DNA of 64,000 bases from Candidatus Dojkabacteria bacterium (lineage in GTDB: Bacteria > Patescibacteriota > Dojkabacteria > B142 > JAFGMG01). The notes below the pieces were generated by a model that made no database searches, had not been told where the DNA came from, and saw only the letters and a program-made list of their open reading frames with translations. The translations under genes were made by a program, and so were the position numbers. Shown in pieces: positions 26,757 to 44,770 of the stretch (its first letter is position 1; each line of letters begins with the position of its first letter). The stretch covers positions 5,929-69,928 of the forward strand of contig JAFGMG010000008.1 in the NCBI GenBank assembly GCA_016927655.1, given 5' to 3'.

Positions 26757-28586
26757 TTATCTGTATAGCCAGCTCAAGAAATCACGAATAACGGGCATTG
26801 ATTTATAACCCCTTCCCCCTTCTTGAAGATGAATGACAAAACTGTAGTCCTTTCCTTCGTATTCAAAACCACCAATTGCCCACGAATGTGCTCCGTCTAC
26901 CTTTTTCCCATTTCTATATTCTGTTGCATCAGCCGATCCTGTCTTTGCGTAAGGATTCCCTGGGGAGTTCTTCAGTGCTGTAGCACTACCCCGATAGCCA
27001 TTCACTGCATATTTCATCCCTTTTCTAATTGTTCTAAAATTCTCCTTACTGACACTCACCTCACTTAATACTTCCGGTGCAATTATTTCTACCTCTTTTC
27101 CAGTTTGATCCGTAATTTTACTTACCAAATGCGGTTTGTAAATCACCCCTTCGTTAGCTATTGCACTTACCATTGTGACCATCTGAATAGGAGTGGCCGT
27201 TACAAGCCCCTGTCCAATAGCCGTATTACAAATATCCGCAAGATACCAGGGTTCGCCAACTTTCTCTTCCTTCAATTCTGGAGATGCCATTGTTCCTGCT
27301 TGTTCACCGGGAAGATCGATTCCGGTTTTTTTACCAATTCCAAATTGATCCGTATACTTTATCAGCGATCTGATTCCGTCTGCTTTTTCAGTCAAAGCCA
27401 AAGCTGTTTTACAAAAAAAGACATTACTCGATCTTCCAAGGCCTTCCACCACAGTCATTGTCCCAAGATATGCATTATCAGCTTCACATAATTTATAAAG
27501 CGGCAATTCAACGCAGCCTGATTGGAATTGGGTACTAGGAGTTATTGCCCCCTCTTCTAGTGCGGCCGCTGCTACCATGGGTTTAAAAGTTGATCCTGTT
27601 GGAAGCTGCAAAGCAATCGACCTGTTTAAAAGAGGAGTTCTTTCATCATTCATAAGTGCGGTAAAATCTTTGACACTTATCCCTTCCGTAAACAGGTTAT
27701 TGTCATAGGAAGGCACATTAGCCATAGCCTTTATTTCTCCAGTCCGGCTCTCCATAATAACCGCTACACCCGCAAATGAATCCGTTACATCTACCTGCTT
27801 TTCAAGTATTTCATACAATTTTTTCTGCCAGTTTGAATCGATTGTCAAATACAAGTTTGAGCCCTCTTGCGGACTGGCCGAAATGTATTCTTCAAGAATT
27901 TTATCTTCCAGATCTGTTTTTTTCACTTCAGTCCCGTCAGTCCCCCTTAGTGCCTGATCGTATTGCTTTTCAATCCCCTCTTTCCCGATCTTGGCATTCT
28001 GGTCCAGACCTGTTTGCTCAATTTCACCTTCATTTATATCCCCAACATAACCTAGTATGTGGGCCATCCCAGTATTTTGACCATACTGCCTGATTGCAGT
28101 TTCTTCTGTATAAACACCATAAAGCTCATCTAATCTCTCAGTCAAACTAATGTATTTCTCGAAGGAAATATCCGCATCGATAGTCACAACAGGCTTCCGC
28201 TCATCTTCTATTGCTACCTCAACGATACCAACAATATCCTCCTTATCGATTTCTAGAATAGTCGACAGCAGATTTAATTTATTTTCATCTTCCAAATCAA
28301 ATTCCTTTGTTTTGATGTAAACAGAAAAGGCGGGGATATTTTTGGCTAAAATCTCACCATTCTCGTCGTAAATTACACCTCTAGAAGCTCTAAGAATGTT
28401 CTTATTTTGTGAAATATTCGTTGCACGAATCAGGTTTTCTTTACCCGACACAATCTGCAGATCAAAAAGATTAGTAAGCAGGAACCCCATCATTAAAATC
28501 AGAGTTATCATAATAAAAAGCAGTCTCCAGCTTGAAGGTGCTACTTGCTTATCGTCTGTAATTGTCTCAATGATATGTCTTGTCAT
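26757..28586 (-). CDS. mrdA: penicillin-binding protein 2 (elongasome transpeptidase)
   Basis: N-terminal TM; transpeptidase motifs STFK, SSN and KTGS; lies downstream of mreBCD. Confidence 0.85.
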   Translation of the reverse strand: MTRHIIETITDDKQVAPSSWRLLFIMITLILMMGFLLTNLFDLQIVSGKENLIRATNISQNKNILRASRGVIYDENGEILAKNIPAFSVYIKTKEFDLEDENKLNLLSTILEIDKEDIVGIVEVAIEDERKPVVTIDADISFEKYISLTERLDELYGVYTEETAIRQYGQNTGMAHILGYVGDINEGEIEQTGLDQNAKIGKEGIEKQYDQALRGTDGTEVKKTDLEDKILEEYISASPQEGSNLYLTIDSNWQKKLYEILEKQVDVTDSFAGVAVIMESRTGEIKAMANVPSYDNNLFTEGISVKDFTALMNDERTPLLNRSIALQLPTGSTFKPMVAAAALEEGAITPSTQFQSGCVELPLYKLCEADNAYLGTMTVVEGLGRSSNVFFCKTALALTEKADGIRSLIKYTDQFGIGKKTGIDLPGEQAGTMASPELKEEKVGEPWYLADICNTAIGQGLVTATPIQMVTMVSAIANEGVIYKPHLVSKITDQTGKEVEIIAPEVLSEVSVSKENFRTIRKGMKYAVNGYRGSATALKNSPGNPYAKTGSADATEYRNGKKVDGAHSWAIGGFEYEGKDYSFVIHLQEGGRGYKSMPVIRDFLSWLYR

Positions 28587-28588
28587 TA

Positions 28589-29062
28589 CTAAACTTTAAA
28601 GCTTACATCTTCTCTCCCGGGTTTAAGAAGGTATTTAAACATGTACACTAATACCAAATGCGTAAATAAAAATATAAAGAAATTCAGCATACCGAAGTCG
28701 CTATGCCCATTCAACAAGTAGTTAGAGCCAACAAATAAAACTCTATATAAGGATAAAAATAAAAACACCGCAAGATAATTCCTCTCTTCAGCTAAAATTT
28801 CGAGGAATCGATCTATGACAAGTATTGCAAATAACGAAGCTCCAAAACAAAGGGATGGTAAACCAATGATACCAATACTAATAAAACTCACAAGTATTCC
28901 TAGAGCAGACACCCAGATGATATTTCTGCTTCTTAGATCGAAAAGCGTCAAAGCGCCCAATGCGACGTAGAGGTCTACTGCCCCGAAAAGAGCCGTATGC
29001 CCTAGAAACGCTTCCCAAATAAGGACCACAAAACTAAAGATGGCTAAATTCCTAATCTTCAT
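28589..29062 (-). CDS. mreD: rod shape-determining protein MreD (polytopic membrane)
   Basis: 157-aa hydrophobic protein in the mreB-mreC-X-mrdA position. Called from context. Confidence 0.5.
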   Translation of the reverse strand: MKIRNLAIFSFVVLIWEAFLGHTALFGAVDLYVALGALTLFDLRSRNIIWVSALGILVSFISIGIIGLPSLCFGASLFAILVIDRFLEILAEERNYLAVFLFLSLYRVLFVGSNYLLNGHSDFGMLNFFIFLFTHLVLVYMFKYLLKPGREDVSFKV

Positions 29063-29861
29063 AATCTAAAACAAAGACCTCACGTAAATTAAATGGATTA
29101 ATTTCAGTTTCAAGAATTACTTCTTTTGTTGTCTGACTTGGAAATTCGCTGATTTCTTTCACTTGGCCCAAATAAAGATCCGCCGGATAATTACTATTTA
29201 TTCCAAGAGTCATAAACTTGTCTCCAATGGTTAAAACCTCATTTGATAGAATTTTTTCGACTTTCAATCTTACTCCCTGCTCTGAAACAAGAACTCCTTT
29301 GACCCCGGAAGTACTAATTGCACTTATTTTTGTATCTTTTGAGAAGATGCTCCTGACTTTTGCGGATCTGGAGGATATTTCTATTATTTCTCCCAAAGCA
29401 TATGCCTTATAAACAACCACATCACCCTTTTCAAGCCCGTTATTTGTACCTTTATTGATATAAAATACTCCAGACTCTTCGCTTGAAATACGGATGATCT
29501 GCGCTGGAACAAGCTTATAACTTGGTGCAAAACTAACCTCTAATTGGGTTTTATAAACCTCAAGCTCTCTTATTTCGGCCTGCAGATCTACTACCTCCGT
29601 ATTCAAATCTTCAACTTGAGATTGATATTTATCTCGTTCTGTTTTTAGATTGTTCAAATCTCCAATTATTTCAAAAATTTCTTCAAATTTATCGACCCGT
29701 TTTTTAATAACTACCCGATAACCGGATTGTAAACTCTCGCTAGCACTCTTAACTCCATCGAGAACCCCCAGCTGGTCAAGGAGAAGAGAGGCAATCGATA
29801 TCCCAATCAATACTATCAAGGTTACGAAAATGTTATTGTTGCGAGCTTTTCGTTCTTTCAA
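29052..29861 (-). CDS. mreC: rod shape-determining protein MreC
   Basis: N-terminal TM, coiled coil, beta-rich C-terminus; positional. Confidence 0.7.
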   Translation of the reverse strand: MKERKARNNNIFVTLIVLIGISIASLLLDQLGVLDGVKSASESLQSGYRVVIKKRVDKFEEIFEIIGDLNNLKTERDKYQSQVEDLNTEVVDLQAEIRELEVYKTQLEVSFAPSYKLVPAQIIRISSEESGVFYINKGTNNGLEKGDVVVYKAYALGEIIEISSRSAKVRSIFSKDTKISAISTSGVKGVLVSEQGVRLKVEKILSNEVLTIGDKFMTLGINSNYPADLYLGQVKEISEFPSQTTKEVILETEINPFNLREVFVLDYED

Positions 29862-29878
29862 AACCTGTTATATGAAAA

Positions 29879-30931
29879 TTAAATAAACTCTTCTCCTTTT
29901 ACTTGAATCCTCTCAAGAAGATCTATTTCCGAAAGAAGTGTACTTGTTCCTCTTGCAACGGCACTCATTGGATCCTCGTCAATTATTATAGGTGTTCTCA
30001 ATTTTTCCTCAAGATATTTATCAATTCCATCTAGCAGTGCCCCACCCCCGACTAATGTGATTCCGCGCTCGAGCAAGTCAGATAATATTTCTGGAGGAGT
30101 TTGCTCGAGCGCCTCTCTGGCAGCTTCCGCAATTTTATCTAGAACTTTTACAATCGCTTCCCGGATCTCCACACTTGAAACAGTCATCACTTTTGGCAAG
30201 CCGGAAACCAGGTCGCGCCCCTTAAGCTGCGCCTCTTTTTCTTTTCGCATCGAATAGGCAGATCCAATCGCAATTTTTATATCTTCTGCCTGCTTATCTC
30301 CAATTGCGACATTGTACTTGTGACGGGCATAATTTACGATTTCCTGATCAATTTCATCGCCCGCAATTCTTACAGTATTATCAACAACGATCCCCCCAAG
30401 CGAGATTATTGCAATATCAGTAGTACCTCCCCCAATATCAATAATCATTGAACCAGCAGCATCTTCAATTGGAATTTTGGCTCCAATGGCTGCTGCCATC
30501 GGCTCTTCAATAATATAAGCTCTTCTTGCTCCAGCAGTAACTGCTGCATCTATCACGGCTTTTCCTTCGACCTCAGTAATATTTGACGGCACTCCAATCA
30601 CTACTCGAGGCTTAGCAAAAGTAAATAATTTTGGAAAATCTTTGTGAACTTTTCTGATGAAGTAGCGGATCATAGCCTCTGTGCTGTCAAAATCTGATAT
30701 CACTCCATCTCTTAGCGGTCTCACAGCAACAATATTAGCAGGTGTTCGGCCGATCATTCTCTTCGCTTCTGCCCCGACCGCCAGAATTTGTTTAGTATTT
30801 TTGTTCACCGCAACAACAGAGGGCTCCGAAATCACGATTCCGTGGCCTTTAACTGCAACCATTGTATTGGCTGTACCAAGGTCTATCCCGACATCATGAG
30901 TAAACAAATTCCAAATACTTGGATTTGACAT
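29879..30931 (-). CDS. mreB: rod shape-determining actin homolog MreB
   Basis: VGIDLGTANT...EPSVVA...EPMAAAIGA...DIGGGTTD actin-fold motifs. Confidence 0.9.
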   Translation of the reverse strand: MSNPSIWNLFTHDVGIDLGTANTMVAVKGHGIVISEPSVVAVNKNTKQILAVGAEAKRMIGRTPANIVAVRPLRDGVISDFDSTEAMIRYFIRKVHKDFPKLFTFAKPRVVIGVPSNITEVEGKAVIDAAVTAGARRAYIIEEPMAAAIGAKIPIEDAAGSMIIDIGGGTTDIAIISLGGIVVDNTVRIAGDEIDQEIVNYARHKYNVAIGDKQAEDIKIAIGSAYSMRKEKEAQLKGRDLVSGLPKVMTVSSVEIREAIVKVLDKIAEAAREALEQTPPEILSDLLERGITLVGGGALLDGIDKYLEEKLRTPIIIDEDPMSAVARGTSTLLSEIDLLERIQVKGEEFI

Positions 30932-31573: not shown

Positions 31574-31647
31574 GCTGGGATAGCTCAGTTGGTCAGAGCA
31601 ACGGTTTTGTAAACCGTAGGTCGCGAGTTCGACTCTCGCTCCCAGCT
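31574..31647 (+). tRNA. tRNA-Thr (anticodon UGU)
   Basis: Cloverleaf read by hand: acceptor GCTGGGA/TCCCAGC, D-arm TAGCTCAGTTGGTCAGAGCA, anticodon loop TT-TGT-AA, T-arm GGTCGCGAGTTCGACTCTCGC. No encoded CCA. Confidence 0.85.
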
Positions 31648-31652
31648 TTCTA

Positions 31653-31725
31653 GCTGAAGTAGCTCAGTTGGTAGAGCATTCCCATGGTAAGGGAAAGGTC
31701 GTGGATTCGAGCTCCACCTTCAGCT
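31653..31725 (+). tRNA. tRNA-Thr (anticodon GGU)
   Basis: Acceptor GCTGAAG/CTTCAGC, anticodon stem TTCCC/GGGAA with loop AT-GGT-AA, T-loop TTCGAGC. No encoded CCA. Confidence 0.85.
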
Positions 31726-31746
31726 CCATTTTTAAGCAAATTAACA

Positions 31747-32490: not shown

Positions 32491-32562
32491 AGGGCTTTAG
32501 TGTCAATGGTAGCACGACGGTCTCCAAAACCGTTAGTGTAGGTTCAAATCCTACAAGCCCTG
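32491..32562 (+). tRNA. tRNA-Trp (anticodon CCA)
   Basis: Acceptor AGGGCTT/AAGCCCT, anticodon stem ACGGT/ACCGT with loop CT-CCA-AA, T-arm GTAGGTTCAAATCCTAC. In the conserved position upstream of secE-nusG. Confidence 0.8.
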
Positions 32563-32565
32563 CTT

Positions 32566-33759: not shown

Positions 33760-33866
33760 AGTTAAAAATAAATAATTCGCCGATTATATCAGCCAGGGCA
33801 ACACAAGTTCATATTTTTCTGATATAATCTTCATGCGTTCACTAAGTTCAGGTGATAGTTTTTTTT

Positions 33867-37076: not shown

Positions 37077-37101
37077 AATGAGTTCATAAAGACACATGAA
37101 A

Positions 37102-37135
37102 AGAACCTTGCTATTGCAAGGTTCTTCCTTTAATA
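37102..37135 (+). terminator. intrinsic terminator after rplL
   Basis: Hairpin AGAACCTTGC-TATT-GCAAGGTTCT followed by a T-rich tract. Confidence 0.5.
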
Positions 37136-37166
37136 TTGAGTTTGATAAATCTTAAAATCAAAAGTC

Positions 37167-37862
37167 ATGAACGAACTTCTACCAGCCGCTTTGATTGATG
37201 AAGGGATCATTACCAGAGTCACACTCCTTATGATCATCATGCTTCCTATAGTTGGTACTGTGATCGGATTTACCAAGCATGTAATTGGTCTAAAGTCACT
37301 TGGGTTGTACGCACCAATTGTTATGACCTATGCGTATTTCCAAATTGGTTTATCAAGCGGCCATTCAAGTTGGATCGACCAGGTGTTCTACAGCTTTAAA
37401 GTCGGAATAGCATTAACCATAGTTGTTTTCCTCACCACCCTGCTTGCTCACAAGGTCACGAAACTAATGCGTCTTCATTATTCACCAAAAATTGCTTTAG
37501 TAATAAGCACAGTCGCAATCAGTATGTATCTGGTAATTATTGTTGCAAGATATTTAGATCTTGAGACATTTCTTGAAAGCAGCTTCATTCCAATCATTCT
37601 GCTTTCTACTGTTTCAGAGCAATTTGTAGTTACAATGGCCCAGAAAAATATAAAAACAGCTTTCAGCTTAACGCTGACTACAACAATCATCTCATTTTGC
37701 ACGTTTGCCCTGATCATCTACGGCCCTTTTCAGAATCTAATGATTGATTATCCTTATCTTTTGATTCTAACTTTCCCGCTCAATATTATGATTGGTAAAT
37801 TTACCGGGCTGAGACTACTTGAATATTTTAGATTCCAGAATGTTATTCCGCAAAACGAATAA
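37167..37862 (+). CDS. 7-transmembrane membrane protein (resembles the 7TM module that accompanies ATP-grasp peptide-ligase systems)
   Basis: Seven hydrophobic helices counted by eye; no soluble domain. Separated by 2 nt from the downstream ATP-grasp fusion gene. Confidence 0.55.
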   Translation: MNELLPAALIDEGIITRVTLLMIIMLPIVGTVIGFTKHVIGLKSLGLYAPIVMTYAYFQIGLSSGHSSWIDQVFYSFKVGIALTIVVFLTTLLAHKVTKLMRLHYSPKIALVISTVAISMYLVIIVARYLDLETFLESSFIPIILLSTVSEQFVVTMAQKNIKTAFSLTLTTTIISFCTFALIIYGPFQNLMIDYPYLLILTFPLNIMIGKFTGLRLLEYFRFQNVIPQNE

Positions 37863-37864
37863 AA

Positions 37865-40204
37865 ATGAGCTTTCTAAACACATTTAAAAATCGGGAAAAA
37901 ATTCTTGGGCGAAACGAGAGAAATCTCAAATATATCCGGCCCTACAATCTCACGCGCGCAAAAAAAATTGCCGATAACAAACTGCTGACAAAAGAAATTC
38001 TCGAGAAAAATGGTATACCAACGCCAAAATTAATTGGGAAAGTCGAATCTATCCAAGATCTAAAAAATTTCGATTGGGAATCCCTGCCAAACAGCTTCGT
38101 TATTAAACCAGTACAAGGGCTTGAGGGAGCCGGGATCGAAATTTTCTACAACAGGGATAAACAAGGCAGGTGGATCATGGGAGATGGCAGGAAAGTCTCC
38201 GTTGGAGACTTAAAAGCCATGGCAATTGATATTATGGACGGGAAATATTCACTCCACAACCAAAAAGACAGTGTATTTTTTGAAGAACGGGTAAAAATGC
38301 ACAAAGTTTTCAAATATTATGCCTATAAGGGAGCTCCTGATATTAGAATTCTTGTCTTCAATAATATTCCAATAATGTCTTATCTCCGGCTTCCGACAAA
38401 AGAATCCAAAGGTAAGGGGAATTTAGCTCTTGGCGCTGTTGGAGCTGCAATCGATCTTGCCAGTGGAATAACGACAACTGCTGTACTTGGGAAAGATACC
38501 ATTGTTGAGAAAATTCCCGGAACAAACTTAAATGTTGGAGGTTTAAAAATTCCATATTGGGATGAAATACTCAAAATAGCTATAAAAGCGCATCAAGTCA
38601 CCGGACTCGGCTTTGCTGCAATCGACTTTCTAATTGACCGGGATCTCGGCCCGCAGATCATTGAACTTAACGCCAGACCAGGTCTTTCAATACAAATTGC
38701 AAATAGAGATGGTCTTAGATGGAGACTCAGAAAAGCTGCAGGGCTCAAAGTTACAAGTCCACTGAAAGGAATTAGAATTGCTAAAGATCTTTTTGGAGGG
38801 CAGCTCGAGGAACAAATCGAAAAAATTTCAGGTAAATCGATTATAAGCCATATCATGCCTGTCGAGATAATCGATCCAAATCAAAAAAAGATTCCTGCTC
38901 TTGCCTTGATTGATACAAGCAGACGTACTACAACTATAAATTATAAACTCGCGCAAAAAGCGGGTATTCCAATTTCTGAAGAAAGCTTCAAAGAAACAAG
39001 CATGTCAGATATTTCTTTTAGTCTCGCCGGTAAAATTATCAATGCCGACTGCCGTGTAGTCAAAGATAAAATCCGGGGATACAATATGCTGATTGGGCGA
39101 AGAGATCTAGGCGACTTTCTAATTGACATCAGAAGAGTCGCTACCGGGAAAGAAGATCTGCAAAAAGAAGAACTTGTTTCAGTACAAGGGCTTCAAAAGC
39201 CGGAAAATATTGATAATGCACTTGCTGAAATTGCAGAACAAATCTACATAGTTAGAAATATCAGACCGACAAACGCATCTTCAGAGAAGAAAGAATTTAA
39301 CAAAAAGAAAACTTACAGTCCGCAACTTGAGTACGAGCCGGTAAATATTGATACTGATAACCTGATATACAAACTTAGCAACCTGAATCCGGATAGAAAT
39401 ACCCAGATTGGCAAACTACTATCTGAAAAGATCGACTCTTTAAGAAAAGCAATCTATCTAATCGAGGCGATTGGGGAAGATGATAAATTTCCGCAAAGAG
39501 CCGAGAACCTTTATGGCGTGCCGGATGTTAAGATTTTTACTAAGGCTGTAGAACTTATTCGAGAAACTGACGCTATCAAACCGGATGTAAGAAAAGAGAA
39601 AGTCCTGGATAAGTCAGAAGTTGAAAAAAGAATAGCAGATCATATCAAAAAAATCGGGATTGAAGCAAAAATCGAATACATCAGAAACGGCGCCGGGAAA
39701 GCCTCGATCGGGAAAAAACAAGGGATTATTTATTTAAATCCGGATTATAAATTTACCGAAACTAAATTATTAGGGACCTTGGCACACGAAATCGACATCC
39801 ATTTGGCGAGGTCCTTTTATGGCAGACAGCGACCTTATAAAATCTATAGTTATGGGACAGCTGGATACCTAGAAGTTGAGGAAGGGCTGGCCGTAAGAAA
39901 TAAAGCCGAGGTTTTAAAAAGTCAGCAGCCAATTAGAAATGCGGCTATTATGTACGTCGCAGCGTATTTAAATCACAAAAACTCCTTTAGAGAAACATAT
40001 AACTATCTCCTCAAGCTCGGCATATCAAAAACAAATGCTTACAATTTTACAATGAGAACAAAAAAAGGCATGATAGATACCTCAAAACCAGGAGCGTTTT
40101 TGAAAGATATGCTCTACTTTTCAGGTTATCTCAAAGTAAAGGATTTAAGCAAAGAGGAGATAGGAAAACTGATAAAAAGCGGAAAGACTTCTACAGTTAT
40201 TTAA
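37865..40204 (+). CDS. three-domain fusion: RimK-like ATP-grasp amidoligase + retropepsin-like (DUF785-type) domain + DUF1704/QEGLA MATCAP-like metallopeptidase
   Basis: ATP-grasp motifs FVIKPVQGLEGAGIEI, DIRILVFN and IELNARPG in the first ~310 aa. Mid-domain PALALIDTSRRT reads as a retropepsin-like D-T/S-G motif with G replaced by S. C-terminal LAHEIDIH (HExxxH) followed about 25 aa later by EEGLA. Confidence 0.65.
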   Translation: MSFLNTFKNREKILGRNERNLKYIRPYNLTRAKKIADNKLLTKEILEKNGIPTPKLIGKVESIQDLKNFDWESLPNSFVIKPVQGLEGAGIEIFYNRDKQGRWIMGDGRKVSVGDLKAMAIDIMDGKYSLHNQKDSVFFEERVKMHKVFKYYAYKGAPDIRILVFNNIPIMSYLRLPTKESKGKGNLALGAVGAAIDLASGITTTAVLGKDTIVEKIPGTNLNVGGLKIPYWDEILKIAIKAHQVTGLGFAAIDFLIDRDLGPQIIELNARPGLSIQIANRDGLRWRLRKAAGLKVTSPLKGIRIAKDLFGGQLEEQIEKISGKSIISHIMPVEIIDPNQKKIPALALIDTSRRTTTINYKLAQKAGIPISEESFKETSMSDISFSLAGKIINADCRVVKDKIRGYNMLIGRRDLGDFLIDIRRVATGKEDLQKEELVSVQGLQKPENIDNALAEIAEQIYIVRNIRPTNASSEKKEFNKKKTYSPQLEYEPVNIDTDNLIYKLSNLNPDRNTQIGKLLSEKIDSLRKAIYLIEAIGEDDKFPQRAENLYGVPDVKIFTKAVELIRETDAIKPDVRKEKVLDKSEVEKRIADHIKKIGIEAKIEYIRNGAGKASIGKKQGIIYLNPDYKFTETKLLGTLAHEIDIHLARSFYGRQRPYKIYSYGTAGYLEVEEGLAVRNKAEVLKSQQPIRNAAIMYVAAYLNHKNSFRETYNYLLKLGISKTNAYNFTMRTKKGMIDTSKPGAFLKDMLYFSGYLKVKDLSKEEIGKLIKSGKTSTVI

Positions 40205-41206
40205 TTATCTCCCCCTAAGACTGCTTTTGATCACATCCAAATGCTTCAACGCCTCGGCAACACCCGTAACGACTGCATCCAGAGGATCGTCCACAACGTG
40301 TGCAGGTACTCCGGTAGCTTTGGTGAAAAGCTCATCAATATCACTAAATAGTGCAGTTCCGCCGCTTAATACCATTCCCCTATCAATAATGTCAGAAGTA
40401 AGCTCCGGCGGAGTCTCTTCCAAGACAGTTTTTATTGCACCAATGATTTGATTTAGAACAGGCTTAACAGCGTCATTAAGCTCATTTGAATTTATCATTA
40501 AAGTAACAGGCATACCATTTGCAACACTTCTACCACGAACTTCCATTTCCTTGGGATTGTCATGAAAAACTGCAGAACCAATTTCAATTTTCATTTTCTC
40601 TGCCATCTGTTCCCCAATTACCAGACCTTTTATCTTCCTCATATAATTTACAATTGCTTCATTTAGAGCATCGCCCGCTATTCGTTTGGATTCATAATTG
40701 ACAATTCCATTCATAGAAATTACTGCAACCTCAGTAGTACCCCCGCCCATATTCACAATCATATTTCCAGTGCTGGTACTAATTGGAAGCTCCGCGCCAA
40801 TAGCGGCGGCAATCGGCTCAGGAATAAGATATATTTTCCCGGCTCCTGCTGCTGCTGCTGCCTCAATTACAGCTCTTTCCTCGACAGAAGTAAGACCTGC
40901 TGGAACACTTATCATAACTTCCGGCTTTACAAAGCGGCTCCTGCCGATTGCCTTATTAAGCAGCGCTTTTAACAGAGCTTCAGTCAGACGGTAACTTGCA
41001 ATCACTCCCTGCCTTAGGGGTCTTCTTGCAACAATGTTCCCAGGGACTTTACCAAGCATTTCCTTCGCTTCATTGCCGACAGCAAGAACCTTTCGATCGT
41101 CCAGGGACACTGCCACAACACTTGGTTCTCGTACAACAACCCCCTGCCCTTGCAGAAAGACTAAGGAATTCGCTGTTCCAAGATCAATTGCAACTTTTTT
41201 TGCCAT
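40205..41206 (-). CDS. second actin-like MreB paralog
   Basis: IDLGTANS...EPSVVA...EPIAAAIGA...NMGGGTTE. Confidence 0.8.
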   Translation of the reverse strand: MAKKVAIDLGTANSLVFLQGQGVVVREPSVVAVSLDDRKVLAVGNEAKEMLGKVPGNIVARRPLRQGVIASYRLTEALLKALLNKAIGRSRFVKPEVMISVPAGLTSVEERAVIEAAAAAGAGKIYLIPEPIAAAIGAELPISTSTGNMIVNMGGGTTEVAVISMNGIVNYESKRIAGDALNEAIVNYMRKIKGLVIGEQMAEKMKIEIGSAVFHDNPKEMEVRGRSVANGMPVTLMINSNELNDAVKPVLNQIIGAIKTVLEETPPELTSDIIDRGMVLSGGTALFSDIDELFTKATGVPAHVVDDPLDAVVTGVAEALKHLDVIKSSLRGR

Positions 41207-42877: not shown

Positions 42878-43486
42878 TTAAACTTGAACCTTTCCATAAT
42901 ACCCCATCGGCTTATGAACGTTTACCGGATAATCCATGAGTTCTGTATCTGAGAACCAAAGTTCAATTTCTTCTTTGGCCTCATCAACTGAACCAGAGGC
43001 ATGTACAAGATTATAAAACGGTCTCATTTGTTCGTTGGCAAGATCGGCATTGTCCCAGCTATAATCTCCTCTAATAGTACCCGGAGCAGCCTTGACTGGA
43101 TTTGTCTCCCCTACCAGTTTACGCCCGATACTTACCGCTTCCGGTCCTTCAAAAACCATCGCTAGAACTGGTCCCATCGAGAGATACTCGACAAGCCAGC
43201 CTTTAACAAGTCCCCCAATTTCTTCCGGCACATCAGTCCCCAGTCTTTCCACTGGATCAATTCCTTTTTCTTTGTATTCAGCAAGCGTTCTCCCCCCAAC
43301 CTTTTCCTTCCATTCCTTACTATCAGGGTAATGTTTTTCACTCATATCATCAGTAGCAGCGATAAATTCCAGGGCTACCATTTTCAAACCCACTCTTTCA
43401 AATCTGGAAATTATTTCCCCCATCAAGCCCCTTGCAACACCATCGTGTTTAATTATTATCAGTGTTTTTTCTTTAGTTTTATCCAT
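42878..43486 (-). CDS. ndk: nucleoside diphosphate kinase-like protein (extended, ~35-aa insertion)
   Basis: IIKHDGVARGL...SMGPVLAMVFEG...GTIRGDY...NLVHASGS (catalytic His retained). Confidence 0.7.
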   Translation of the reverse strand: MDKTKEKTLIIIKHDGVARGLMGEIISRFERVGLKMVALEFIAATDDMSEKHYPDSKEWKEKVGGRTLAEYKEKGIDPVERLGTDVPEEIGGLVKGWLVEYLSMGPVLAMVFEGPEAVSIGRKLVGETNPVKAAPGTIRGDYSWDNADLANEQMRPFYNLVHASGSVDEAKEEIELWFSDTELMDYPVNVHKPMGYYGKVQV

Positions 43487-43503
43487 TTGAAATTGCTAAT
43501 AAA

Positions 43504-44127
43504 TTATTTTTCCAGATCAAGCATTCCAATATAATCGACCTTTTCATAATCACTCAAATCTTCGAATTTATCCCCAAACCAATGTGTGATTTCTCTTTTT
43601 GCTTCTTCCTTAGAATCAGAAATATGCACTAAAGTCTGAAATACGATTCTTCCGGATTTGACTGCTAACTGAGGAGTATCATACCCCCAATTGCCTCTAA
43701 TAGTGCCGACATCTGCAGTTGTTGGATCTGTTGCCCCCGCGAGCTTTCGAACGATTTTCACCGCCTCGTTCCCTTCCCAGACAGAGATAATCACTGGCCC
43801 GGATGATAAATATCTTACTAGTCCGTCATAAATTCTCTGCCCAATTTCTTTTTTGTCAGTCGTGCCCATTTCATCCATTATTCTTTTCTCATCGCCGCTG
43901 TAATTTGCCCAGGTTTTCTCTCCCATGCCAATCAGCCACTCATCAGTGCCTGGATAATTTCCCCTGGCCTGCTCTTCTGTCGCCTGAATCATCCTTGCTG
44001 CAACAAGTTTCAACCCAGCATCTTCAAGCTTTTTCCAAGCTCTGCCGATCAATCCTCGTTTCACCCCATCGGGCTTGATCATCATAAAAGTCTGCTCAAT
44101 ACTTGGGAAATTTTCCTTTGCTTTCAT
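43504..44127 (-). CDS. ndk: nucleoside diphosphate kinase-like protein, tandem paralog (extended)
   Basis: MMIKPDGVKRGL...SSGPVIISVWEG...GTIRGNW...TLVHISDS; same insertion position as its neighbour. Confidence 0.7.
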   Translation of the reverse strand: MKAKENFPSIEQTFMMIKPDGVKRGLIGRAWKKLEDAGLKLVAARMIQATEEQARGNYPGTDEWLIGMGEKTWANYSGDEKRIMDEMGTTDKKEIGQRIYDGLVRYLSSGPVIISVWEGNEAVKIVRKLAGATDPTTADVGTIRGNWGYDTPQLAVKSGRIVFQTLVHISDSKEEAKREITHWFGDKFEDLSDYEKVDYIGMLDLEK

Positions 44128-44143
44128 TCAATTTTTTTAATAT

Positions 44144-44770
44144 CTAAAGAAGTTTACGTTTTTTAAGCATTTCTATTATCGCATCAGTTACCTCTTCTGG
44201 TCCACCATTGCCATCAACCTTTTCCCAATCGCAATAGATCTCTTCCTTGACCATCTTTCTAAAAATTTTTTGCAATTTCTTTTGTTTTGCCACACTTTTT
44301 TCGAACATATCAGGCCCTTCATCATGACCCTCTTCTTTATTTTTCCGCTCGATCGCAACCTCCGGATCAACGTCTAAATAAATCGCCAGATCGGGTCTTG
44401 GAATATTAAATTCAACTCCATAGTCAATCAATTTCTGCAGTTCTACTTGACTCATAAGTAGTGATTGATATGCAATTGTTGTAGTGAAATAGCCATCAGC
44501 AATAAAAACCTTTTTCTTATCTTTGCCAACATAAGGAGAAATATTATCTGTATAGAGAGTTTTATCAAGTAAGTAAGAAAGCACCCAGGAAGCTGTATTC
44601 ATTTTGGTTTCACCTTGCAATGCTGGGTGGATAATTGTCTCGTAGAATGCATTGTGCACCGGGAATTCAACACCCTTCACTTTAACTCCCATTTTCGCCA
44701 ATCTGTCTGAAATTTCAATCCGCTGGAAACCTTTACCGCCGCCATCAATTGACTCAAGGACTAGAAACAT
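44144..44770 (-). CDS. thymidylate kinase-like P-loop kinase with non-canonical Walker A (IDGGGKGF)
   Basis: Tmk-like layout (LESIDGGGKGFQ...ADGYFTTTIAYQ, against canonical EGxDGxGKTT...DRY). The Ser/Thr after the Lys is replaced by Gly and DRY by DGY. Confidence 0.5.
   Translation of the reverse strand: MFLVLESIDGGGKGFQRIEISDRLAKMGVKVKGVEFPVHNAFYETIIHPALQGETKMNTASWVLSYLLDKTLYTDNISPYVGKDKKKVFIADGYFTTTIAYQSLLMSQVELQKLIDYGVEFNIPRPDLAIYLDVDPEVAIERKNKEEGHDEGPDMFEKSVAKQKKLQKIFRKMVKEEIYCDWEKVDGNGGPEEVTDAIIEMLKKRKLL

Follow-up and report, generated by a model that had tools for sequence, protein, structure and literature searches.

Here we report the analysis of a 64,000-nucleotide stretch of DNA from a Candidatus Dojkabacteria bacterium (contig JAFGMG010000008.1 of assembly GCA_016927655.1; hereafter, the window), and of a flagged region within it that is the active-site core of a gluzincin-type metallocarboxypeptidase domain of the MATCAP/DUF1704 family, for which metal binding and catalysis are predicted. 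The domain forms the C-terminal part of a protein of 779 amino acids (aa), in which it is preceded by an ATP-grasp amino-acid ligase domain and a shortened retropepsin-fold domain, and which is encoded immediately downstream of a gene for a 7TM membrane protein. Our observations comprise domain identities, motif conservation, fold and gene linkage. On this basis, we consider it moderately likely that the fused ligase builds a C-terminal tail or peptide and that the MATCAP domain trims it near the 7TM protein, a reading in which the catalysis, the substrate and the antagonism of the two activities are what we infer. One protein would then probably both add and remove C-terminal residues. The three-domain gene is laid out as follows:

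37865..40204, plus strand: three-domain open reading frame (ORF) of 779 aa, its ATG lying 2 nucleotides (nt) after the stop codon of the 7TM gene (37167..37862)
37892..38746, plus strand: ATP-grasp amino-acid ligase domain, RimK/RloC-like, aa 10-294 (Pfam and NCBIfam profiles)
38825..39190, plus strand: retropepsin-fold domain, RloA/RimB-like and shortened, aa 321-442 (AlphaFold2 model and Foldseek)
38912..38920, plus strand: D350-T-S, followed by RR, at the position of the retropepsin D-T/S-G-A signature (sequence and homologue alignment)
39197..40201, plus strand: MATCAP/DUF1704-family metallocarboxypeptidase domain, aa 445-779 (profiles, PDB alignment, AlphaFold2 model and conservation)
39785..39802, plus strand: HEIDIH, aa 641-646, with H641 and H646 as predicted metal ligands and E642 as predicted general base
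39878..39892, plus strand: EEGLA, aa 672-676, with E673 as predicted third metal ligand

An earlier sequence-only reading had placed a C-terminal domain of a bacterial MATCAP/DUF1704-like putative carboxypeptidase at positions 39400-40204 (aa 512-779), and the DUF1704 profile search bears out this assignment, as Pfam PF08014 (MATCAP, formerly DUF1704) matched aa 478-766 with an E-value of 5.5e-35 and 121.4 bits, above the gathering score of 27. The proposed range lies inside the domain, but its start is too late by about 100-200 nt; likewise, the flagged domain is the C-terminal third of the 779-aa ORF and has no gene of its own, a fusion context that had been missed. The motif LAHEIDIH, described as having HExxxH spacing, is present at aa 639-646 in the plus-strand translation of 37865..40204, and EEGLA does follow about 25 residues downstream, the gap between H646 and E672 being 25 residues. 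Since only 8 histidines occur in the 779-aa protein, whose composition predicts about 0.005 HExxxH motifs, HEIDIH is no chance match. The distance from H641 to the first residue of xEGLA is 31 residues, a spacing that recurs in the full-length homologues with one exception (P0037), which is a spurious regular-expression match.

Comparison with the human enzyme, using phmmer against all PDB sequences, identified human MATCAP (7z5g, E-value 7.6e-11) and aligned both motifs, HEIDIH with HEIGTH and EEGLA with EEGLA. In the numbering of chain 7z6s_C, H641 corresponds to H280, E642 to E281, H646 to H285, and E673 to E316, the latter within TEEGLA. The human substitutions E281Q and E281A are catalytically dead (PMC13269789, PMC10499314). 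The proposal that the Glu of EEGLA is the likely third ligand agrees with the alignment and with the invariance of E673, its ligand role being predicted. An AlphaFold2 model of aa 445-779, built from 44 sequences, reached a mean predicted local distance difference test score (pLDDT) of 95.7 and a predicted template modeling score (pTM) of 0.93, and a Foldseek search with this model returned human MATCAP as the top match (E-value 1.6e-9, template modeling (TM) score 0.62, 329 columns), followed by M32 carboxypeptidases. The helices carrying HExxxH and xEGLA are consecutive in the model (model residues 188-210 and 224-240), as in gluzincins, with E673 (E229 in domain numbering) on the helix that follows the HExxxH helix. 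The other gluzincins compared, of the M32 (Taq-type), M3 and M2 families, carry HExxH instead of the HExxxH of the window protein, are about 500 aa or longer, and share 8-12% identity with it. Both motifs together with the H, E, H and E residues are present in 43 of 43 full-length fusion homologues, and H641, E642, H646 and E673 are invariant across 61 diverse relatives with 26-33% identity. Active enzymes typically keep their catalytic and metal-binding residues in this way, and activity is predicted here as well.

The assignment to the QEGLA family made from the letters of the sequence is supported at the level of the domain family. The NCBIfam model for QEGLA motif proteins, TIGR02421, matched aa 450-770 with an E-value of 1.5e-36, but the score of 126.5 bits falls below the equivalog cutoff of 338.65, whereas a Photobacterium member scores 442 bits. 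The window protein and the TIGR02421 proteins, which occur in Proteobacteria and Bacteroidota, have in common the family, the motif spacing and the linkage to an ATP-grasp gene. They differ in the motif itself (EEGLA versus QEGLA) and in the ligase, which in the window is RloC/RimK-like and fused, with no N-formylglutamate amidohydrolase (FGase), whereas the TIGR02421 proteins have a GshB-like neighbor of the NF009110 subfamily and many of them an FGase. Judged by these profile scores and features, the window protein is a member of a subfamily that is related to the TIGR02421 QEGLA proteins and belongs to a different orthologous group. The 779-aa protein is identical to NCBI entry MBN1331761.1, annotated as a 'DUF1704 domain-containing protein' of Candidatus Dojkabacteria; therefore, the domain assignment is already in public annotation.

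Homologues of the 779-aa protein align from residue 1 with 100% coverage. Its N-terminal domain matched Pfam ATPgrasp_ST (PF14397) with an E-value of 2.7e-59 and 201 bits, against a cutoff of 31.4, as well as RimK (7.9e-10) and TIGR02291, 'alpha-L-glutamate ligase-like protein' (7.3e-75; 251.9 bits, cutoff 314.2). The nucleotide- and Mg-binding residues K81, G85, G88, G90, D197, D254, D258 and G273 are invariant in 120 homologues, and the columns of the E-x-N-A-R-x-G motif are at least 90% conserved. Most likely, the ligase extends a C-terminal carboxylate with amino acids, Glu being the probable residue because of the relationship to RimK and TIGR02291. A weak Pfam TTL match (E-value 0.033) was discounted as evidence of a specific link to TTL, since it covers only the common C-terminal motif of ATP-grasp proteins.

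The middle domain was recognized by its fold. It reached no threshold in Pfam and had no PF05618 match, the score for Asp_protease_2 being 17 bits against a cutoff of 24.3. Its AlphaFold2 model has a pLDDT of 93.2, and Foldseek matched it to the RVP domains of Ddi1, to Pseudomonas RloA (9g58, TM-score 0.65) and RloA2 (9g59), and to the DUF785 structure 2pma, with the highest TM-scores among PDB entries obtained against the solved RloA structure 9g58. At 122 aa, it is about 30 residues shorter than its counterpart in the MATCAP-less homologues, which are proteins of about 470 aa composed of ATP-grasp and retropepsin domains, with a median middle domain of 154 aa (n = 77); the median in the MATCAP fusions (n = 43) is 122 aa. 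The catalytic signature differs in the same way: all 77 MATCAP-less homologues have DTGA or DSGA, compared with 1 of the 43 fusions; in 21 of the fusions this position reads DTSR, and others have variants including NP.. and DP... Given this loss of the DTG signature, the middle domain is probably a scaffold or binding module. We also considered that MATCAP had replaced the retropepsin as the peptidase of the system, and rejected this as a conclusion, because the evidence is a strong correlation, the ATP-grasp tree, whose inner branches are very short, gives no direction, and DTGA is kept by a fused Saccharibacteria protein (L093) and in a split Paceibacterota operon (L098).

To place the fusion within the family, an exhaustive HMMER search was run with the C-terminal domain (E <= 1e-3), yielding 1,706 representative clusters. 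Among the best 150 of the 1,706 representatives, about one quarter are fusions 740-840 aa long that carry the domain C-terminally, and standalone proteins of 330-400 aa account for most of the remainder; those of intermediate length are truncated copies of the 740-840 aa fusion. The domain order is reversed in a protein of 891 aa from a JGI/Logan metagenome (P0210), where MATCAP occupies aa 37-357 and is followed C-terminally by an ATP-grasp_3-type domain; this is an independent fusion of MATCAP and ATP-grasp. Split-gene versions occur in Paceibacterota and Gracilibacteria (L098, L109). A degenerate DNA pattern (HExxxH, 75 nt, [QE]EGLA), applied to a single genome of each GTDB species, recovered a true family member in 113 of the 120 returned chunks of 8 kb. 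The hosts include Gamma- and Alphaproteobacteria, Bacteroidota, Planctomycetota, Actinomycetota, Myxococcota, Chloroflexota, Clostridium, Methanosarcina, Woesearchaeota and several classes of Patescibacteria. Seven of the 113 loci, all from Patescibacteria, are fused to an RloC-like ligase. An ATP-grasp gene is present in the 8-kb chunk at 66 of the 106 unfused loci and within 500 nt at 52 of 106, almost always on the same strand; the gene is found in 21 of 27 when the count is limited to unfused loci flanked on either side by 2 kb or more. The neighboring ligase belongs to the GshB-like subfamily NF009110 (479 bits, cutoff 408), and many unfused MATCAP proteins have an FGase domain (PF05013) at the N-terminus or encoded by an adjacent gene. 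Two clades of ATP-grasp proteins are thus linked to MATCAP, as neighbors and as fusions in both orders, and this constitutes strong contextual evidence for a shared pathway.

The operon of MATCAP and GshB-like ligase, often with FGase, is typical outside Patescibacteria, as seen at L007, L009, L015, L032, L059, L068 and about 50 more loci. No description of this three-part MATCAP/GshB-like/FGase module was found in the searchable literature, nor was anything found there on the function or ligase linkage of bacterial MATCAP/DUF1704 proteins; MATCAP was identified as a tubulin detyrosinase only in 2022. The gene linkage of MATCAP and ligase may already be described in Iyer et al. 2009 (Mol Biosyst 5:1636).

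The gene directly 5' of the fusion encodes its apparent partner:

37167..37862, plus strand: 7TM_transglut-family membrane protein of 231 aa (Pfam PF14402, NCBIfam RloB and hydropathy)

The protein matched PF14402 with an E-value of 3.8e-18 and 66 bits (cutoff 25), and aligned to model positions 302-506 of 508 of NCBIfam RloB (NF052267) with 37.5 bits (cutoff 900). According to these profile scans, it equals the C-terminal half of RloB only and is devoid of the transglutaminase-like domain. The hydropathy scan fits a 7TM topology of the N-out/C-in kind. The order rplL, 7TM, fusion, mreB is kept at 44% identity in L002, whereas Patescibacteria at 36-38% identity have other surroundings, yet carry the 7TM_transglut gene directly 5', there with N-terminal PKD domains. 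In every related locus inspected, the 7TM gene precedes the fusion, and in the window and in loci down to 37% identity it lies directly upstream, either 2 nt away or overlapping. Because this pairing persists where the surroundings differ, the 7TM gene and the ligase-peptidase gene form a conserved unit.

The 7TM protein ends in a conserved C-terminal segment, GKFTGLRLLEYFRF, followed by a tail with a final Glu. The C-terminus of the 7TM protein is at 37797-37859 in the window, and the segment recurs in the partner proteins as G[KR][FW][TS]GLR..E[YF].RF, among them those of L002, L013, L024, L102, L109 and P0271-P0281, and should be cytoplasmic by the positive-inside rule. In 16 of 25 partner proteins, the short variable tail after it has Glu or Asp as its last residue, and five of these finish in EE or EEE; among the ORFs of the window, about 6 of 57 have such an acidic end. 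The 25 sequences are related to one another, and the acidic end is not universal among them. The RimK substrate RpsF ends in Glu-Glu, and by this resemblance the tail of the 7TM protein may be the acceptor of the ligase. Two other candidate substrates encoded in the window, ribosomal protein L11 (ending ...LEVEE) and MreB (the first copy ending ...KGEEFI), were rejected, since the tails that could be compared in L002, at 44% identity, are not conserved: L11 ends there in ...VEVID, the C-terminus of the second MreB differs, and the first MreB has no counterpart in the L002 stretch.

Taken together, we regard the system as a variant of the Rim/Rlo ligase-peptidase systems in which the RloB-like 7TM protein is truncated, the ligase is RloC-like, the RloA/RimB-like domain has decayed and a MATCAP domain has been added. 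Like the window cassette, RloABC of Pseudomonas aeruginosa combines 7TM_transglut, ATP-grasp and retropepsin-fold modules (Lormand et al. 2025, 10.1101/2025.03.18.643919). In contrast to RloABC, the 7TM protein of the window lacks the inactive transglutaminase domain of RloB, the retropepsin module is cytoplasmic, fused, shortened and without DTG, and MATCAP has been added. RimK-RimB and the RimBK hybrid likewise join an alpha-L-glutamate-ligase-type ATP-grasp protein and a peptidase, RimBK being a precedent for the fusion (Little et al. 2025, PMC11957791). Unlike in RimBK, the ligase of the window protein is N-terminal, that is, the order is reversed, and it scores 60 bits with the rimK_fam model, against a cutoff of 143; moreover, the peptidase with an intact site is a metallocarboxypeptidase in the window, whereas it is an aspartic endopeptidase in RimB. 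The human members of the family, MATCAP1/KIAA0895L (TMCP1) and MATCAP2/KIAA0895 (TMCP2), with the structures 7z5g and 7z6s, share about 20-23% identity with the bacterial domain, which has no microtubule context and, in the window, is fused to a ligase and a retropepsin-fold domain and paired with a 7TM protein.

In the mechanism that we favor, the ATP-grasp domain would assemble a short peptide or C-terminal tail of amino acids. The MATCAP domain would take residues off the C-terminus of this ligase product, thereby setting its length or clearing it. The three-domain enzyme is predicted to be cytoplasmic and would act where the 7TM protein encoded upstream faces the cytoplasm. By analogy, this trimming would parallel the action of RimB against RimK, of RloA against RloB/RloC, and of MATCAP against TTL/TTLL. 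RimB shortens the Glu tails that RimK has attached, and hybrids of RimB and RimK are active (PMC11957791). RloA cleaves Glu-rich sequences, and loss of rloB or rloC rescues the loss of RloA proteases (10.1101/2025.03.18.643919). MATCAP/TMCP enzymes remove C-terminal Tyr, as well as Glu and polyglutamate, from tubulin tails made by the TTL/TTLL ATP-grasp ligases (PMC10499314). The pairing of bacterial ATP-grasp peptide ligases with tag-reversing peptidases is a published idea, as is the bacterial origin of TTL (PMC3495828, citing Iyer et al. 2009).

Several points speak against this mechanism. The literature search turned up no activity, metal content or substrate for bacterial MATCAP/DUF1704 members, and the function of known relatives cannot simply be transferred, because the scores lie below the equivalog cutoffs of both TIGR02421 and TIGR02291. 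With both on one chain, the ligase and a hydrolase acting on its product would drive a futile cycle unless regulated. Finally, the Pfam name of this ATP-grasp family is 'sugar-transfer associated', and some related loci contain DegT, Mur-ligase and extra ATP-grasp genes, which implies that the product could be a small peptide or an envelope precursor.

The last point leads to an alternative that we hold to be unlikely, though with a real chance of being correct, namely that the ligase makes or lengthens a non-ribosomal peptide (for instance a glutathione-like one), a poly-amino-acid or a peptide on an envelope precursor that the 7TM protein handles, and that MATCAP is the peptidase or amidase of this metabolite rather than of a protein tail. 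The usual partners outside Patescibacteria, the GshB-like ligase and the FGase domain, are small-molecule enzyme types. In the Dojkabacteria genome GCA_016932045.1, which has no MATCAP at this locus (L004:5960-9079), the genes that come after the 7TM gene and an ATP-grasp-retropepsin gene are two further RimK-like ATP-grasp genes, a Mur-ligase-like gene and a convergent mreB, a series that suggests stepwise peptide synthesis, and another related locus contains DegT and four ATP-grasp genes. The position of the window cassette between a ribosomal-protein cluster and mreB, and the envelope phenotypes of Rlo mutants (10.1101/2025.03.18.643919), would also suit such chemistry. However, the window cassette is without these extra genes, the only characterized MATCAP-family members act on protein C-termini (PMC10499314), and the chemistry of RimK-type ligases, like that of RloA/RimB, concerns alpha-linked Glu in proteins or peptides (PMC11957791).

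A second alternative is that the two activities are sequential, with MATCAP removing one or more encoded C-terminal residues of a precursor and thus exposing an acceptor that the ATP-grasp domain extends. The fusion and the conserved linkage suit sequential action as well as antagonism, and detyrosination of tubulin exposes a Glu C-terminus (PMC10499314). Nevertheless, we consider such priming quite unlikely, given that the peptidase removes ligase-added residues in both the RimK/RimB and the TTL(L)/MATCAP pairs (PMC11957791, PMC10499314), that opposing roles also suit the rescue of RloA loss when rloB or rloC is missing (10.1101/2025.03.18.643919), and that the cassette contains no candidate precursor gene. 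The idea that only the ligase is active and that MATCAP serves as a non-catalytic binding module for C-terminal tails could appeal to the adjoining retropepsin-fold domain, whose lost signature means that domain inactivation occurs in this lineage, but it is scarcely credible in view of the four catalytic and metal-binding residues that are invariant in the 61 relatives and the 43 fusions.

Under the favored reading, in which the fused ligase extends and MATCAP trims, the fusion and the widespread ligase linkage would give bacterial MATCAP relatives a concrete and testable role, the trimming of C-terminal tails or peptides made by ligases. The Rim and Rlo systems of ligases and peptidases, whose effects in Pseudomonas extend to stress tolerance, antibiotic sensitivity and cell shape, would gain a third type of peptidase, and the writer/eraser logic of the tubulin code would have a prokaryotic precedent. 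A bolder version, which we put forward as a speculation and think doubtful as a whole, is that prokaryotic MATCAPs are dedicated erasers of ATP-grasp writers that predate eukaryotes, that the tubulin cycle descends from or repeats this arrangement, and that the substrate in Patescibacteria is the 7TM tail; if so, tail length would be a tunable mark on a membrane protein. As a practical matter, the compact two-gene system from a small genome would lend itself to reconstitution in vitro.

Upstream of the two-gene cassette lie secE, nusG and rplK-A-J-L, in a cluster that begins near 33852, and two short elements were noted between rplL and the 7TM gene:

37101..37126, plus strand: terminator-like hairpin after rplL, with an 11-bp stem and a weak T tract (consensus scan and sequence; putative function)
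37130..37158, plus strand: promoter-like site TTAATA-17-TAAAAT, 9 bases upstream of the 7TM start (consensus scan, 9 of 12 matches)

As a putative terminator, the hairpin would separate the ribosomal-protein cluster from the cassette. Promoter-like sites are no more numerous in the region than expected from shuffling, which makes the site weak evidence for a promoter. On the other side, a second mreB (40205-41206, minus strand) converges on the fusion gene without an intergenic base. The window thus has two mreB paralogues, the other at the head of a cluster at 26757-30931 on the minus strand, whose ORFs we take from their sequences to be mreB-mreC-mreD-PBP2; the second mreB is similarly arranged in L002 and L004. 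Other Dojkabacteria have a MATCAP-less cassette at the equivalent place after rplL. In one metagenome-assembled genome ('bacterium isolate nzgw385', L060:4030-6259), pieces of ATP-grasp and MATCAP are spread over several short ORFs in different frames, which is either a decayed copy of the fusion or the result of frameshift errors in the assembly.

Further from the cassette, adjacent tRNA-Thr genes (TGT and GGT; 31574-31728, plus strand) extend over the start listed for the ORF at 31684; this ORF therefore probably starts further downstream and, by synteny with L002, looks like a SpoU-type methylase. A tRNA-Trp gene (32491-32563, plus strand) lies downstream of this ORF, towards the secE-nusG-rplKAJL cluster. 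At 42878-44770 on the minus strand, there are presumably two tandem nucleoside-diphosphate-kinase-like ORFs followed by a thymidylate-kinase-like ORF, and the syntenic genes of L002 match PF00334 twice and PF02223.

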